From positions 1 to 40,745 of the forward strand of contig JBMFIG010000012.1 of NCBI GenBank assembly GCA_049976425.1: a stretch of 40,745 nt of DNA, written 5' to 3'. Under the pieces are notes generated by a model. The model was not told the DNA's origin. It was given only the letters and a program-made list of their open reading frames with translations, and ran no database searches. A program made the translations under genes and the position numbers. This document shows, in pieces, positions 29,012 to 40,706 of this stretch. Each line of letters starts with the position of its first letter. Within the stretch, counting starts at the first letter, position 1. The stretch is from Thermoproteus sp. (GTDB lineage Archaea > Thermoproteota > Thermoprotei > Thermoproteales > Thermoproteaceae).

Positions 29012-31249
29012 GTGGACGCGTTTAGGATATACGCCGTCGGCATAGTCCAGAGGGTCGGCTTTAGGCCGTACGTGAAGATGCTGGCCGACAGCCTAGGCGT
29101 GAGGGGCTACGTGAAGAACCTAGGAGGCGGCGAGGTGGAGATATTCGTCGAGGGGGAGAGAGCCCGGGAGTTCGTAGACGCCCTTAGAGAGAGGAGGCCG
29201 AGGGCCATAGTGCTGGAGGAGCTGGTGGTGGAGAGAGCCGAGCCGCGGGGCTACACGGCCCTCGAGATACTGAAAAGCGGCGAGGAGGCGCGGGCCCCCT
29301 CGAACATACCGCCCGACATGGCCATATGCGACGAGTGCCTTCGGGAGGTCCTCGAGGGGGGACGAGAGGAGGCGGGGATACTACTTCAACTCCTGTAGCT
29401 TCTGCGGCCCCCGCTTCTCGGTGATAAGGAGGCTCCCCTACGACGGGGAGAACACGAGCTGGGCGGCCTTCCCCATGTGCCCCCGCTACAGGGAGGAGTA
29501 CTCCACGCCGTCGGTGGGGGGCCTGCGCCGGTATTTCTACCAAGGCATATCGTGCAAGCGCGACGGGCCGCGGGTGAGGCTTCTGGAGCCCTCCGGCAGG
29601 GCCGTCGACGCCGACGACCCGGTGCTCAAAGCGGCCGAGCTCGTGTCGAGGGGATTCATAGTGGCGGTGAAAGGCGTCGGCGGGTACCACATATTCGCCA
29701 AGGCGAGCGACGACTCTGTCGTGGCGGAGCTGAGGCGGAGGAAGAGGAGACCCAGCCAGCCCTTCGCCGTCATGGCGCTCGACCTAGAGACGGCGAGGCG
29801 TTTGGTCGAGGTCGACGAGAGCTCGGCGGAGCTCTTGGCCTCTCCCCAAAGGCCCATAGTCCTCCTCCCCAAGAGGAAGGACTCCCCGGCGTCCCCCCCG
29901 TCTCCCCCGGCCTCGATAGGGAGGGGGTCTTCCTCCCCTACACAGCCCTCCAGTACATCCTCTTGTCAAACATAAAAGACAAGTTCGCGATAGCCACCAG
30001 CGGCAACATACACGGGGAGCCTATGTGCACCACTCTGAAATGCGTCTTGGAGAGGCTGAGGAGCGTGGTGGACTTCGTCCTAGACCACGACCTAGAGATC
30101 GTGCACAGAGTAGACGACAGCGTGGTGAGGTTCACAAACGGCGTGGCGACGTTCATCCGCCGGTCCCGCGGCTACGCCCCGGCCTGGATCAAGATGCCGA
30201 GGAGGCTCGGAAAGCCGGCGGTGGCCTTCGGCGCCGATCTGCAGACGGCGGGCGCCGTGGCCTTCAACGACAAGGCCGTCTTGACGCAGTACATCGGCGA
30301 CCTCGACAGCTTCCAGGCGCTGGAGGAGCTGGACAGAGAGCTTAGGTGGTTCGCCGACGTCTATAGGCTAAGGGACTTCGTCTTGGTCTGCGATAAAAAC
30401 CCGGCCTACAACAGCGTGAGGCTGTGTAGAGAGTGGGGGGAGGAGCTCGGCGCTGAGGTACGCCAAGTCCAGCACCACCACGCCCACGCGCTCGCCGCCG
30501 CCGACGGAGGCGTCGATGAGCCCTTCGTGGCTGTTGTTATAGACGGAGCGGGGTACGGCGAGGACGGCGCGGCGTGGGGCGGGGAGGTGCTCTACGTCGA
30601 GGGGACGCGCTACGTGAGGGAGAGACACCTTCCCTACGTCCCCATGCCCGGCGGCGATCTGGCGGTCCTCCGCCCGGCGAGGATGGCCGCGGCGTACTTC
30701 CACAAAGCCCTCGGCGAGATCCCGCGGGGCCTGGCGCTCTACCTACCAGGCGGCGAGGCCGAGCTGGCCCTCGTGGAGAAAGAGTTGAAGAGCCCCAGGG
30801 CGTGGACATCCAGCGCGGGTAGGTTTCTGGACGCAGTCGCCGCGGCGCTCGGAGTAGCTTGGGAGAGGACATACGAGGGGGAGCCCGCCATAAGACTCGA
30901 AGCCGCCGCGCGCGGAGGCAGTGGCCTGCAGTTCCACGCGGAGGATCAGGTGGAGCTTTTCGCAGAGGCTGTGGAGGCGGCGAGGAGAGGCGCCTCGGTG
31001 AGAGATGTGGCATACGGCGTACAGCTGAGGCTCGGCCAGATACTGGGGACCTGGGCCTGCGACGCCGCGGCCAAGAGAGGCGCCGGCGTGGCGGCCGTCT
31101 CCGGAGGAGCCGCTGTAAACGACATCATCTTAAGGGGTATAGCGGAGGAGGTTTCCCGTTGCGGGTTGCGCCTTGTCCAGCACAGGAGAGCCCCGCCGGG
31201 CGACGGGGGGATAGCCCTCGGCCAGGTCTACTACGCCACCTACCTCTAG
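29012..31249 (+). pseudogene. hypF: Carbamoyltransferase HypF, split by two frameshifts
   Basis: Acylphosphatase GIVQRVGFRP, Zn fingers, KGVGGYH, TSGN, QHHHAH, DGAGYGEDG--WGGE, SAGRFLDA, PGDGGIALGQ. Shifts at G6 (29356-29361) and C7 (29893-29899). Confidence 0.92.
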
Positions 31250-32013
31250 CCGGAGGCCCTTGGCTCCACCTGCTCCGCCGGGCTCACGATGTCTATACCC
31301 AAAGATCTGGCCAGGGCGCGTACAAAGTCGGGGTTCTTGTCGTGTATAAACGGCGACACTAGAATCACTCTCTCAACCCTCCTCCCAGACACCTTTTCAT
31401 ACAGCTCCGCCTTCCTCTTTACATATGGCAAATCGCCGCGCCTAACCGCCGAGGCGATCTCCACCACCACGACGACCCCGTCCCTCATCACCACGTCAAG
31501 CTCCAGCTCGCTCGGGTATCCGTAGACCTGGCCTTTCTCGTCGAAGTACGTCCACCGCTCCACCACGTAGCCAGCCTCCCTAAACAACTCCCTAACCCCC
31601 TCCCTAAAAGCCTCCTCACTCCACACACCCCACCTAGCCCCCAGGGCCATAATCTGAATAGACAACTTCCTAATCTCAGCCCGCAACTCCTCCTTAGTGG
31701 CCAGCGCCTTCAAATCCTCCTTTGTGGCCATTCTGCTTTCTACCTCTTCTAGCCTTTTCTCTAATTTCTGTAGCTCCTCTTTTGCGGCTAGTTGTTTTAG
31801 ATCGTCCTTTGTCGCCATTGTGTTTCTAATCTCCTCTAGCTCTCTTTTGGTTGCCATGTTGTTCTTAATCTCCTCTACTTCTCTCAATAGCCTTTCCCAG
31901 GGTAGTAGCTTGGCGAGTGCTTCGTACACAATGTGAGGCCTCGCGGTTAGGACTTCCACTAAAATCTCCGGATGCTCCAGCAAAACACGCCGCACCTCCT
32001 CAGCAATGGACAC
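31246..32013 (-). CDS. paREP-type coiled-coil PD-(D/E)XK-like protein (DUF3782/DUF1626-like)
   Basis: MATKxDL repeats, ALGARWG, EEAFREG, ELDVV...VEI, KAELYEKV-G; start GTG 32013 (or ATG 32028) after a TTTATA box. Confidence 0.85.
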   Translation of the reverse strand: MSIAEEVRRVLLEHPEILVEVLTARPHIVYEALAKLLPWERLLREVEEIKNNMATKRELEEIRNTMATKDDLKQLAAKEELQKLEKRLEEVESRMATKEDLKALATKEELRAEIRKLSIQIMALGARWGVWSEEAFREGVRELFREAGYVVERWTYFDEKGQVYGYPSELELDVVMRDGVVVVVEIASAVRRGDLPYVKRKAELYEKVSGRRVERVILVSPFIHDKNPDFVRALARSLGIDIVSPAEQVEPRASG

Positions 32014-32271
32014 AGATACGTACGACATGGAAGTATAAATACTATATTTAGGACTCCCCTCTCCCTTCTTCCGAGCGACTGAGGCCATCTCGCGTCCACT
32101 GCTTGACGCGTACTTTCTACTATCCGGACGTCTTGAGATCCTCCGACGCCTCGCCGGGACTTATTGAGTGAGGCTACATCTCTGACAACGGCGGCTACAA
32201 ACCTCGCCCTTCAGATCAGAGAGAAGATCGGCCGCGTATAGGCGCGGCTCCTGCGGGCGTAGCTGAAAACC

Positions 32272-32346: not shown

Positions 32347-32464
32347 AGCGGGGTAGGCCAGCCAGGTAGGCCGCGGGGCTCATAGGGGGGACATCCCCCT
32401 GTGAGACCCCGAGGTCCCGGGTTCAAGGACGTCGAGTCCGACTAGAATCCCGGCCCCGCTACCA
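32347..32464 (+). tRNA. Initiator tRNA-Met(CAT) with two introns (32386-32406 at 38/39; 32426-32445 at 57/58) and encoded CCA
   Basis: Acceptor stem AGCGGGG/CCCCGCT (A1:U72), anticodon stem CGGGG/CCCCG with consecutive G:C pairs, anticodon CAT at 32381-32383, T stem CCGGG/CCCGG, terminal ACCA. Both inserts fold as relaxed bulge-helix-bulge motifs. Confidence 0.95.
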
Positions 32465-32502
32465 ATAGTTTGACCAAGAACCTCTCTAAGAATCTCAAGA
32501 TA

Positions 32503-33855
32503 TTAATAAAATTTTAATCTCATTATAAGTTTCTCTATTATGCGTTTTTGCCGCTCAGTAGCCGCGCAGACAAGCTTCCCGTTCAAGAACTCGAATACCG
32601 CGATCTTGATGTCGTCGCGTTGTGCAACCAGCTTTTTCAAGTCCCTAGTTGAAATATAAACAGTATATCCCTTCGTCTTGGCTATCTTGGGCTCGAGGCC
32701 ATGTTTTCTCAGCTTCTCTGAGAAGTCTCTAGCAGAGGCCGCGTCTGGAAAGTACTTCGTAGCCCATAGCGAGCCGCCTTCGTTGAAGACGACCCTCAAG
32801 CCCATGATTAGCCCCTCTCCCGGCGCGATATCGATATACTTTGCGACGGATCTCCCTCCGGCGTAGTCCGGACGCTTCCTCCGCCTACGTGGCGCCTCTG
32901 CAGACTTTAGATAGAGCCATTTGTGGGGGCTCAATACATCGAGAAGTTCCCCGTATCTTCCCGCCGACTGAATTATCTTGAGGAACAACTCCTTCCCGCC
33001 GGTTACGTATATGTAGTTCTCGCCGGTTTCCGAGTAGCTGGGAAACATGCGGGAGAGCTCTTGCTTCAAATTTCCGGCGACTGCGATCCGGAGCTTGTAA
33101 TGCCTACGCCGTACAAACGACCACTTGACCGAGCCGTCGCCGAGCCACCACGTGAGCAACGGCCTGTAATCGCCTCTGTTGAAGGCCTCTACGGCTAGCT
33201 TAATTGCTTCCCACTTGCCCATCCTCTGGCGCCACGTCGTGCTCTTGACGAAGAAAATAGGCGATATGCCTCTCTTAGTGAGGTTCGCTCCTCGTATCTC
33301 CACCTCTGCACCTCCAGGCCTTGCGGCCAACCAAGCAAAGACTTGCCATATCTGCGTAGTGCCCATCGCCGCCATAGAGCCCTCACGGGTCTCGTCTGAG
33401 GCCCTCCACCCAATGCTAAAAGATATAAGATCGTGTGGATCCATATCGAGTATATTTGGGAAGTATATAGAGGCCCGCACGCCACTTATTTTTATGGTGT
33501 AGACCGCATGGCCCTCGTAATTCTGTATATACATAAAGTCGTCGACGCCCCGCCCCTCCTCCAATAGCCTAGCCACGATCCTCAGAACTGACTCCGCCTC
33601 GAGCTTACCCTGTTCCAGAACTCCTATAACTCCGTCGGCCGCCTCCCCTATCTGCCTTCCGTATTGCGGCGACAGCTCGGCCAGCCTTCCCGCCACGTGG
33701 TGGACGTACAGCCTATAGCCCTCGAAGACTCTGCCTACGCTTCCGGCCGCCACGCCCCTCCTGCCGATCTCGGCAAGGACCTCGCCCAACGTCGGCGTCG
33801 GCTGGGGGCCGAGAGCGGCCTCCACGCGCCTAGCAAGCTCGGCGACGCCCTCCAC
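32503..33855 (-). CDS. PaRep2b-like protein with LAGLIDADG-like motifs
   Basis: YFPNIL...GWRASDE, MGTTQIWQVFAW, LTWWLGDGSV and YTVYIS resemble, from memory, the Pyrobaculum PaRep2b family; basic protein with lower GC than its flanks. Confidence 0.7.
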   Translation of the reverse strand: MEGVAELARRVEAALGPQPTPTLGEVLAEIGRRGVAAGSVGRVFEGYRLYVHHVAGRLAELSPQYGRQIGEAADGVIGVLEQGKLEAESVLRIVARLLEEGRGVDDFMYIQNYEGHAVYTIKISGVRASIYFPNILDMDPHDLISFSIGWRASDETREGSMAAMGTTQIWQVFAWLAARPGGAEVEIRGANLTKRGISPIFFVKSTTWRQRMGKWEAIKLAVEAFNRGDYRPLLTWWLGDGSVKWSFVRRRHYKLRIAVAGNLKQELSRMFPSYSETGENYIYVTGGKELFLKIIQSAGRYGELLDVLSPHKWLYLKSAEAPRRRRKRPDYAGGRSVAKYIDIAPGEGLIMGLRVVFNEGGSLWATKYFPDAASARDFSEKLRKHGLEPKIAKTKGYTVYISTRDLKKLVAQRDDIKIAVFEFLNGKLVCAATERQKRIIEKLIMRLKFY

Positions 33856-34054
33856 GTCCTCCAGCGCCTCCGAAAGTTATAACGATGCTGTAGATCGCCT
33901 AGGAGTAGGGTGTCTTGAAACAATCGGCTAACTCTCTGGCCCCCGGCGTGGGCATGCCTCACGGCCGTTCCCAGACCGCGTTGCGGATCGCGTGCGGCGG
34001 GCTTTCGGCCAGCCGCCCGGCGCAATCTATTTAACTCGGCAGACGTCGGCGTAT

Positions 34055-39921: not shown

Positions 39922-40154
39922 CCTTTTGGCTGAGGCGATCCCCGACGCCTCGGTCTCCGGACCCCGGCAAGATCCTGCCGGAGATCGGTATTTCACGGAC
40001 CCACAATGATGTGTCACGAGGCCGTAGCCATATGCGACAGTAGGCGTACAGGCCGGATGGCCGCGCCTCCCAGCGAGTGTTCGCGCCAACCGCATCTCGG
40101 AAACGGAACGACATAGCCAAAAGCTTTTATTTCATCCACTCCACGAATGTTGAC

Positions 40155-40706
40155 ATGGTCTCTGCCGAGGTTCTTGAGAAGCCCCTCCCCAAGCCTTCCA
40201 CCGAGGATTACATCTCGGCCCGCCTCCTGGAGGCTTTGGTGGAGGCTGGGCTGGCTTTGAGATTTCTGAGAGAGGGCCTTGTGAGGAACGCCGCTGGGAA
40301 GGCCTTCCAAGCGTGGAGAGCGCTGATGGCGGCTCTCCTTAGACTTGAGCTCGATAGGCTGAAGGCTTTGGCCAGAAGCGACGAGGACAGGCGTTGGCTG
40401 GAGACAACCGCCGTACCGCGCGTGCCCACCAGCAGAATGACTGCACTGTCGCAGATGCTTGAGGAGGTGGGGTACGCCAAGATATCTTTCGCCACCGCCA
40501 TGGCGCTTAAACTACACGACTACCAGTACCACGGCCCGGACCCCGACATGGCTCTCTCGAAGTATAGGGGTAGGGGGGAGGCGGCTTACGACGTGGTTCT
40601 GCTCTTGAGAGAACTCGCCGAGAGGGCAGAGGCCTTGAGGGGGAGAGTCAAGTGGAGCGAGGAGCTGGAAAAGGCGCTGGAGGAGCTGAGGGGCGCGGCC
40701 CGGTAG
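40155..40706 (+). CDS. PaREP1-family protein (HEPN-like fold)
   Basis: EALVEA-LA--FL-EGLVRNAAGKAFQAW, VPT, ALKLHDYQYHGPD; ATG 40155 after a TTTTATT box. Confidence 0.88.
   Translation: MVSAEVLEKPLPKPSTEDYISARLLEALVEAGLALRFLREGLVRNAAGKAFQAWRALMAALLRLELDRLKALARSDEDRRWLETTAVPRVPTSRMTALSQMLEEVGYAKISFATAMALKLHDYQYHGPDPDMALSKYRGRGEAAYDVVLLLRELAERAEALRGRVKWSEELEKALEELRGAAR

Follow-up and report, generated by a model that had tools for sequence, protein, structure and literature searches.

The locus analyzed here raises the question of why an intact protein-coding gene that matches no established sequence family faces, at a distance of a few dozen base pairs, an initiator tRNA gene that is interrupted twice. 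It lies in a 40,745-nucleotide stretch of a Thermoproteus sp. genome (contig JBMFIG010000012.1, positions 1 to 40,745, of GenBank assembly GCA_049976425.1), which is referred to below, at its full length, as the window. A first-pass annotation of the window had noted a 450-codon open reading frame (ORF), called it a LAGLIDADG-like gene of the PaRep2b type, and proposed either a selfish endonuclease that spreads together with short tRNA introns or a domesticated DNA-binding protein. We consider it moderately probable that the gene is a free-standing selfish gene of the homing endonuclease type that targets tRNA genes and is coupled to introns in their T-arms. Its predicted protein belongs to a family that was followed by profile search through 29 Thermoproteaceae genomes (G000 denotes the window's own genome) and was also sought in metagenome and viral contigs.

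An occupied and an empty allele of the tRNA locus

The initial description of the locus held up. The ORF has no internal stop codon, its GC content is lower than that of the whole window (0.553 versus 0.609), and its product is basic (isoelectric point, pI, of 9.74; 69 Lys and Arg residues versus 50 Asp and Glu residues). The stop codon begins at 32503, 38 bp past the CCA that ends the tRNA at 32464. ARAGORN and Rfam (at the gathering score) called no tRNA anywhere in the window; after in silico removal of about 20 nt from the T-loop, ARAGORN reported a tRNA-Met(CAT) with a 21-nt canonical intron (i(39,21)). This result, together with a copy in a related genome that lacks the T-loop insert, bears out the claim of a tRNA with two introns. 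The tRNA has A1:U72 and A73, which we take to be the mark of an archaeal initiator tRNA (tRNAi-Met). Its precursor folds at -72.3 kcal/mol (z score of -5.8), with the T-loop insert forming a hairpin of its own.

The related genome (G026) is of the same genus, and its flanks are 93 to 97% identical to the window. The two sequences match up to the T-loop of the tRNA (window position 32426) and again from window position 33970; in between, the sequence of G026 consists of the rest of the tRNA (15 nt) and then some 170 bp of unrelated DNA. Relative to G026, the window has three extras: a 20-nt T-loop intron, an encoded CCA, and a 1508-bp segment with the gene as its only ORF. The tRNA of G026 is otherwise identical and keeps the canonical intron. 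No displaced or duplicated tRNA 3' end was found at the far side of the 1508-bp segment of the window. Judged from the sequences, the difference between the two genomes looks like an allele replacement between homologous flanks and not like an integrase-type insertion.

Fold and conserved motifs of the predicted protein

The predicted protein had no match in Pfam (E values up to 10), NCBIfam, or the PDB sequences, and a PDB profile search returned generic helical matches to the N terminus only. Structure prediction was more informative. AlphaFold2, run on the family alignment, gave a predicted local distance difference test score (pLDDT) of 91.7 for the whole protein, and residues 92 to 327 modeled alone reached a pLDDT of 92.1 and a predicted template modeling score (pTM) of 0.87. 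When this domain model was compared with 48,161 chains by VIA-align, ranks 1 to 18 were all occupied by LAGLIDADG proteins (Z scores of 9.9 to 3.9; 6.5 to 9.9 for ranks 1 to 15). Among them were I-WcaI (Z of 9.9; 170 residues at 4.3 Å), I-Tsp061I (9.4; 163 residues), E-DreI (8.8; 163 residues), PI-PfuI (8.3; 160 residues), PI-SceI (8.0; 163 residues), WhiA (7.9; 162 to 172 residues), and I-DmoI (7.8; 147 residues); the first unrelated chain appeared at a Z score of 3.9 over 50 residues. Foldseek likewise placed LAGLIDADG proteins in its first 13 rows for the domain model (best E value of 7e-3; probability up to 0.98). The full-length model matched the identical protein families with lower scores.

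Monomeric, double-motif LAGLIDADG homing endonucleases have two tandem alpha-beta-beta-alpha-beta-beta-alpha domains that make up a single DNA-binding saddle, and LAGLIDADG enzymes carry metal-binding acids at the C-terminal ends of their motif helices. The two motifs singled out in the first-pass annotation, SIGWRASDE and LTWWLGDGS, begin at residues 147 and 234, and their conservation across the family goes beyond chance resemblance. An alignment of 38 members shows G149, W150, A152, S153, D154, E155, L238, G239, D240, and G241 to be invariant and R151 to be present in at least 90% of sequences; in an alignment of 33 core domains that takes in distant homologs from a third genus (g3), G-W-R-A-S-D and L-G-D-G are invariant and E155 is not. 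The core, as modeled, is thus a double-motif LAGLIDADG fold with a conserved acid ending each motif helix, as the earlier annotation had anticipated, and the family is a divergent branch of LAGLIDADG proteins of about 450 residues, from hyperthermophiles, that escapes all sequence models. Outside the core, the best structural match of the C-terminal domain is a WhiA half-domain (chain 8dy9_I; VIA-align Z of 7.2 over 85 residues), and a beta-alpha-beta module within that domain weakly resembles the N-terminal region of PaRep2b (hhalign probability of 50.8%, E value of 1.6e-4, 71 columns).

Distribution, phylogeny, and selection

Of 8000 candidate sequences scored, 116 were relatives at an E value of ≤1e-3, and those with a source name were "hypothetical" proteins of Pyrobaculum, Thermoproteus, or Thermoproteaceae. 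Of 601 stretches of metagenome contigs that matched the search pattern, 536 encode relatives, and the viral contigs yielded none. The family is confined to the Thermoproteaceae, and its occurrence there is uneven. Sixteen of the 29 genomes have matches, with the highest counts in G020 (25), G008 (11), G009 (9), G012 (7), G004 (6), G011 (5), and G027 (5); the other 13 have none, and five of these are complete single-contig genomes. Several copies are fragmented or contain stop codons. Besides the window copy, the window's genome has a C-terminal piece at the beginning of a contig.

A tree of 100 sequences separates a clade A of 6 rows (Shimodaira-Hasegawa-like approximate likelihood ratio test, SH-aLRT, support of 99), all beside tRNAi-Met, from a clade B of 84 rows (support of 100), with the remaining group C forming a basal grade. 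A clade-A gene occupies the same tRNAi-Met locus in two genera, and family remnants lie beside tRNAi-Met in G020, G021, and G011. For 16 clade-B copies, the median ratio of nonsynonymous to synonymous divergence (dN/dS) is 0.25 (range of 0.17 to 0.39, from the 105 of 120 pairs with dS of <1.5), and the family is under purifying selection. Its population pattern is of the homing type: sporadic occurrence, presence and absence at one site, and decayed copies.

Purifying selection is also what would be expected of a domesticated LAGLIDADG-derived protein, similar to WhiA or to a maturase, that binds DNA or RNA and acts, without being mobile, on the neighboring tRNA gene or its transcript. The bacterial transcription factor WhiA has the same double LAGLIDADG scaffold with added domains (Foldseek probability of 0.97 to 0.98, besides the Z score given above), and the extra N- and C-terminal domains of the family, like the persistence of clade A at one locus in two genera, would suit such a role. 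WhiA has lost the LAGLIDADG catalytic acids and has a C-terminal helix-turn-helix domain. Unlike WhiA, the family keeps both motif acids without exception and has a patchy, multicopy, decaying distribution: it is missing from the 13 genomes and from the G026 site, its copy number runs from 0 to 25 with decayed copies, and it stands at many different tRNAs. We regard domestication as improbable.

Position of family genes relative to tRNA genes

As an approximate lower bound, 24 of the 36 distinct short-family loci evaluated across the 29 genomes have a convergent tRNA 3' end within 260 nt of the gene end. A genome of this kind typically has about 46 tRNA genes, and by our own estimate (about 46 tRNAs in about 2 Mb) the chance of finding a convergent tRNA so close to a random gene end is well under 1%. 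Among the metagenome contigs, at least 35 of 67 evaluable loci adjoin a tRNA; the script called 32, of which L187 and L197 were rejected as false, and five (L152, L153, L166, L168, and L200) were added by eye. Both tallies come from a custom scan for a T-arm plus acceptor, used because ARAGORN and Rfam miss multi-intron tRNAs, and they are approximate in that the scan produced false calls (L187, L197, and long "introns" in G000) as well as misses. The enrichment beside tRNA genes that the first-pass annotation had suggested looking for is strong and has one fixed orientation.

The flanked tRNAs are diverse (initiator Met, Thr(UGU), two or three Arg-like, Leu, Ile-like, and Ala-like, with isotypes other than Met read from the anticodon loops), and the junctions are tight. 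Group-C genes end -4 to +7 nt from the tRNA 3' end at five of six loci and 27 nt from it in the partial copy L002. Clade-B copies have in common about 330 nt upstream of the ORF and, downstream of it, a tail of about 165 nt that in several copies stops precisely at the 3' end of the tRNA. The clade-B copies of G020 also carry a conserved perfect palindrome, ACAGGGGGCTAGCCCCCTGT, some 250 to 300 nt upstream of the start codon; the palindrome and the shared upstream DNA could be a promoter, an operator, or a structured RNA.

Other sequences recur around these tRNAs. At the far end of some elements, a mini tRNA-like sequence repeats the 3' part of the flanking tRNA and consists of the acceptor 5' strand, a short linker, an intact T-arm, and the acceptor 3' strand. 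It was seen at 5 of 27 evaluated metagenome loci (among them L164, L172, L178, and L203, about 300 nt upstream of the family gene) and, by eye, at the genome locus G020:C67 (L052:4540-4610), and it may be a displaced or duplicated target. Long paralogs of 833 to 1050 aa match the family profile in pieces, with the C-terminal module repeated two to three times (L051 at G008:C1 ~863280-864917, L052:1-2653 at G020:C67, and L053 at G020:C2); they lie upstream of tRNA genes on the same strand, and at G020:C67, a tRNA-like gene with a T-loop intron stands between a long paralog and a short family gene. Neither the long paralogs nor the genus-g3 homologs reached the threshold of any Pfam family. In G004, a Pyrobaculum H/ACA-like small RNA (sRNA 204; Rfam RF02802, 74.6 bits, at L050:2215-2271) is located just upstream of the tRNA-Thr that adjoins a group-C gene.

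Some of these features could indicate that the gene travels as cargo or in an accessory role within a larger transposon or integrating element (of the PaREP2 type, for example) that another enzyme brings into tRNA genes. PaRep2b-like and long paralogous ORFs do lie upstream of some of the same tRNAs, the DNA shared by clade-B copies extends beyond the ORF on both sides, the mini tRNA-like repeat is present at the 5 of 27 loci, and PaREP2b elements are called putative transposons in the accessible text of the Pyrobaculum oguniense genome paper (PMC3558965). Against this account, the G000 and G026 alleles differ by only 1.5 kb with a single ORF, Pfam identified no integrase or transposase among the 15 neighboring ORFs (22 to 40.7 kb of the window), in agreement with the first-pass annotation, and the viral contigs yielded no relatives. 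We judge a cargo role to be very improbable. An integrative element as such was rejected, on the grounds that the window segment has no displaced tRNA 3' end and that the mini-repeat occurs at so few loci.

Coupling of the family with T-arm introns

At the 24 tRNA-flanked genome loci, 14 tRNAs have a T-arm intron and 10 have an intact T-arm. The metagenome loci are more one-sided: 33 of 35 tRNAs have a T-arm intron (including those at L177 and L182, which the script miscalled and which were read by eye), and two (L186 and L205) do not. Many of these loci sample one tRNA locus repeatedly; counted as distinct tRNAs, about 14 have a T-arm intron and 2 lack one, which corresponds to a P value of 6e-4 against an assumed background of 45%. 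The background in G000 was estimated at about 11 to 13 interrupted T-arms (some 9 to 11 T-loop introns plus 2 T-stem introns) of an assumed, typical total of about 46 tRNAs. Across the 29 genomes, the count of T-arms split by 13 to 27 nt and the count of family matches are correlated (Spearman coefficient of 0.61, P = 4e-4); the reversed control pattern gave -0.17.

The coupling extends to the type of intron. Clade A is partnered by a hairpin intron at about position 58/59 of tRNAi-Met; clade B by introns of the form GGGG..AACCCGCC after TTC, or a variant at 53/54 (type B); and group C by a 29-nt intron, TCA(A/G)GCCCCCGC...GGGATAA, at 53/54 (type C). All 16 type-C introns in the 29 genomes are located in G000, G026, G004, and G011, which are the four genomes with group-C genes, and 6 of the 16 adjoin one. 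Of the 23 sites of type-B introns, 21 belong to the genomes in which clade-B genes or fragments occur (G020, G008, G009, G010, and G012); 6 to 8 of the 23 adjoin a family gene or fragment, and several more have the element tail motif.

The first-pass annotation had asked whether gene presence tracks the T-loop intron. It does in the comparison of G000 with G026, and it does statistically at tRNAi-Met, where a T-loop intron is present at 4 of 8 loci with the gene or a remnant and at 1 of 15 without (23 loci from 22 genomes; Fisher's exact test, P = 0.03). The linkage between gene and intron is not strict. The coupling of the family with T-arm introns is statistical and at the level of genomes.

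The tRNAi-Met gene is variable in other respects as well. It has no intron at all at loci L072 to L078 and L082 (G019, G018, G009, G017, G006, G005, and G008), so the canonical intron is polymorphic too. Where present elsewhere, the canonical intron occurs in several sequence variants. The tRNAi-Met of G011 has three introns, in the D-loop, at the canonical position, and in the T-loop.

Proposed mechanism and points against it

A homing-type process would proceed as follows. In alleles that lack the element, the predicted protein would cleave the DNA of tRNA genes within or close to the T-arm or 3' end, and host recombination repair from an occupied allele would copy the gene in. The short T-arm intron may be coconverted with the gene, or it may persist because it disrupts the recognition site. 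Introns unaccompanied by the gene would result where conversion tracts are short, and orphan introns where the gene decays later; either outcome would fit the excess of introns over genes. Mobilization of introns by the family is a plausible and testable hypothesis.

Several observations weigh against this account. At the level of the protein, none of the Pfam models LAGLIDADG_1, LAGLIDADG_2, and LAGLIDADG_3 reached threshold for the query or for any of the 38 members, among which one LAGLIDADG_3 match (E value of 0.048) and one LAGLIDADG_WhiA match (E value of 0.019) fell below the cutoff. As for placement, no tRNA was detected within 260 nt at 12 of the 36 genome loci, and up to 32 of the 67 metagenome loci are without a detectable tRNA. 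Within-genome paralogs are old (dS of 0.4 to 0.8), with no sign of a recent burst. The P values given above overstate the coupling, as related genomes are not independent samples. No strict bulge-helix-bulge could be drawn for the T-loop intron of the window from the minimum-free-energy fold.

The remaining difficulties concern the match of genes to introns. Intact genes stand beside uninterrupted T-arms at tRNAi-Met in G001 and G004 and at L027, L042, L186, and L205; if the T-arm is the target, these genes would face a cleavable site, and a T-arm-target model leaves them unexplained. Conversely, T-arm introns occur in genomes free of the family (tRNAi-Met of G003, about four in G013, and two to three in G005), and G000 itself has a four-member family of T-loop introns, GGGC(G/A)(T/C)AGCCGCC, with no adjacent family gene detected (C1 ~313210 and 313557, the C1 contig end, and C5:17330). 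The proteins of L148 and L149 are identical over the aligned columns, yet their genes adjoin two different tRNAs whose T-loop introns also differ. Gene and intron therefore do not always move together, and the pair points to a recent move of the gene. Finally, type-B introns contain the complement of the T-stem, and their likeness to each other may be partly forced by the pairing that splicing requires.

Some of these difficulties would be accommodated if the family were a selfish LAGLIDADG element targeting tRNA 3' flanks and T-arm introns played no causal part, co-occurring with it through lineages rich in both. On that account, introns would be expected to outnumber genes, as types B and C do at the sites counted above, to be present in family-free genomes, and to differ beside identical proteins. 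A high background of T-arm introns (about a quarter of the tRNAs in G000) argues in the same direction, as does the count of intact common-type T-arms, which is down to 15 in G008 and G009 versus 26 to 29 in most complete genomes. It is harder to reconcile with the 33 of 35 family-flanked metagenome tRNAs (14 of 16 distinct types) that have a T-arm intron, with the match of intron types to protein groups at the genome level across two genera, and with the G000 and G026 alleles, in which gene and intron differ together. We regard a noncausal association as possible but unlikely.

Comparison with known systems

If the gene is of the homing endonuclease type, its nearest counterparts in fold and host lineage are enzymes encoded within rRNA introns. 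According to the accessible text of one report, rRNA introns are common in Thermoproteales, encode LAGLIDADG homing endonucleases, and depend for their splicing on the endonuclease that also removes tRNA introns (PMC4496867). I-DmoI and I-Tsp061I, both encoded in rRNA introns of Thermoproteales and Desulfurococcales, resemble the family in fold, in the two acid-ended helices, and in host lineage. They differ from it in arrangement, as the family ORF lies outside the intron, beyond the tRNA and on the opposite strand, and the tRNA introns beside it measure only 16 to 30 nt. The family protein is also about twice as large, adds an N-terminal helical hairpin and a C-terminal domain, and has no Pfam LAGLIDADG match at threshold. 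An intron- or intein-encoded endonuclease was rejected on the basis of the position of the ORF, which lies outside the tRNA on the opposite strand, and of the lack of a Hint (intein) domain in the 450-aa protein by Pfam; the gene is neither intron encoded nor Hint fused, as the first-pass annotation had likewise noted no intein termini.

In its arrangement, the family is closer to free-standing phage endonucleases that mobilize a neighboring intron or flanking genes, for which the accessible portions of two reports give T4 mobE with I-TevIII and F-CphI beside the psbA intron (PMC2790892, PMC6083498). As described there, the endonuclease gene of T4 mobE and cyanophage F-CphI is next to the interrupted gene, as in the family. 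The proposed logic, in which flanking DNA is coconverted with an intron that protects the site, would also be common to both. The phage enzymes are described as HNH or Endo VII type and act in phages with self-splicing group I introns, whereas the family is of the LAGLIDADG type, chromosomal, and archaeal, and its tRNA introns are removed by a protein enzyme.

A further parallel comes from a Caldiarchaeum population in which, according to the accessible part of Sugahara et al. (2012; PMC3293823), a 1.87-kb insertion with a single ORF is found at tRNA-Thr(GGU). Presence of that element is described as coinciding with an extra noncanonical intron and a displaced tRNA fragment, and its authors suggest a mobile element as the driving force of intron gain (PMC3293823). 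By its description, the element is like the family in being small and multicopy and in having one ORF that adjoins a tRNA. It differs, on the same description, in phylum, in its 813-bp ORF without an assigned fold, and in its intron position (24/25), and its ORF is on the same strand as the tRNA and on the 5' side, unlike that of the family.

PaRep2b (PF07775), the family of Pyrobaculum repeat proteins to which the first-pass annotation had assigned the gene, occurs in the same genomes, and its positions 105 to 175 align with the C-terminal module of about 70 residues, which is the only part alike. The assignment did not survive. The query has no match over the 512-position PF07775 model, and only 2 of the 38 family members match it, weakly (E value of 0.0066 or weaker). 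The PaRep2b Pfam model has no LAGLIDADG core, and PaRep2b is a separate and abundant family, found at other loci in 17 of the 29 genomes and in far more copies (45 matches in G001), with some PaRep2b-like ORFs upstream of the same tRNAs as family genes. Membership in PaRep2b was rejected on the lack of a PF07775 match in the query, the different loci, and a profile match limited to 71 columns.

Possible significance for tRNA intron gain

No other group is known to have as many tRNA introns at odd positions as the Thermoproteales, in which intron sequences related to one another turn up in different tRNA genes. In its accessible text, a 2014 review gives the mechanism of tRNA intron transposition as unknown (PMC4090602), and the accessible portions of PMC4090602, PMC4033280, and a 2026 preprint (10.64898/2026.10.13.758758) say the same of the route by which intron DNA gets into tRNA genes or passes from one to another. 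Those portions mention neither homing nor LAGLIDADG proteins. Within the literature searched, which did not extend to Fujishima et al. (2010), no paper ties such a LAGLIDADG gene to tRNA introns.

We tentatively suggest, while holding the proposal to be doubtful in this broad form, that the family is the missing engine of large-scale tRNA intron gain and "transposition" in Thermoproteales. If so, LAGLIDADG endonucleases encoded beside tRNA genes would attack the near-universal T-arm DNA of those genes, and repair from an occupied donor would copy in the short T-arm intron, whether or not the endonuclease gene comes along. T-arms once interrupted would be immune to further cutting, and introns would consequently pile up across tRNA genes in step with the endonuclease groups that a genome hosts. 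The endonucleases encoded in archaeal rRNA introns would have their tRNA equivalent in such a system, whose gene would have moved out of an intron that is too small to hold it.

What is new here is a homing endonuclease-type gene in a new genomic arrangement and with extra domains. The family is a concrete and testable candidate, in the form of a nuclease-type selfish gene located exactly at tRNA genes and coupled to T-arm introns, and it may help explain how these hot-spring archaea gained so many tRNA introns. LAGLIDADG proteins are used for genome engineering, to which the family adds a divergent hyperthermophile branch.

Features of the window

The coordinates of the features discussed above are collected in Table 1.

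Table 1. Coordinates of the tRNA gene, the adjoining ORF, and their parts (window numbering)
Feature	Position	Strand	Remarks
Initiator tRNA-Met(CAT) gene	32347..32464	plus	Two introns, encoded CCA
tRNA 5' exon	32347-32384	plus	
Canonical intron	32385-32405	plus	21 nt
tRNA middle exon	32406-32426	plus	
T-loop intron (~58/59)	32427..32446	plus	~20 nt; boundaries ambiguous by 1-2 nt
tRNA 3' exon	32447-32461	plus	
Encoded CCA	32462-32464	plus	
Segment missing in G026	32462..33969		1508 bp: CCA, spacer, ORF, and upstream region
Spacer from tRNA CCA to ORF stop codon	32465..32502		38 bp
ORF for 450-aa free-standing LAGLIDADG-fold protein	32503..33855	minus	GTG start; no internal stop
C-terminal domain, residues 338-450	32506..32844	minus	hhalign, VIA-align
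Beta lead-in and double LAGLIDADG core, residues ~105-325	32881..33543	minus	Domain model, VIA-align, Foldseek
Motif 2, LLTWWLGDG, residues 233-241	33133..33159	minus	End of helix 231-240
Motif 1, SIGWRASDE, residues 147-155	33391..33417	minus	End of helix 140-152
N-terminal long helical hairpin, residues 1-100	33556..33855	minus	Secondary structure; no specific fold match

By Pfam, the 15 neighboring ORFs are ordinary genes, among them those for HypD, NicO, an ABC transporter, HypF, a PD-(D/E)XK/DUF3782 protein, a Macro-domain protein, an archaeal ATPase, NADH dehydrogenase subunits, and a PaREP1 protein. A 280-aa protein encoded immediately upstream of the tRNA, at 31246-32088 on the minus strand, has DUF3782 and PD-(D/E)XK_10 nuclease domains; partial look-alikes of its DNA occur at several other places in its own and related genomes, so that it may represent another repeated family. 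Near the end of the window, at 40077-40706 on the plus strand, lies the gene for the PaREP1/PaREP8 family protein (Pfam E value of 6e-27).

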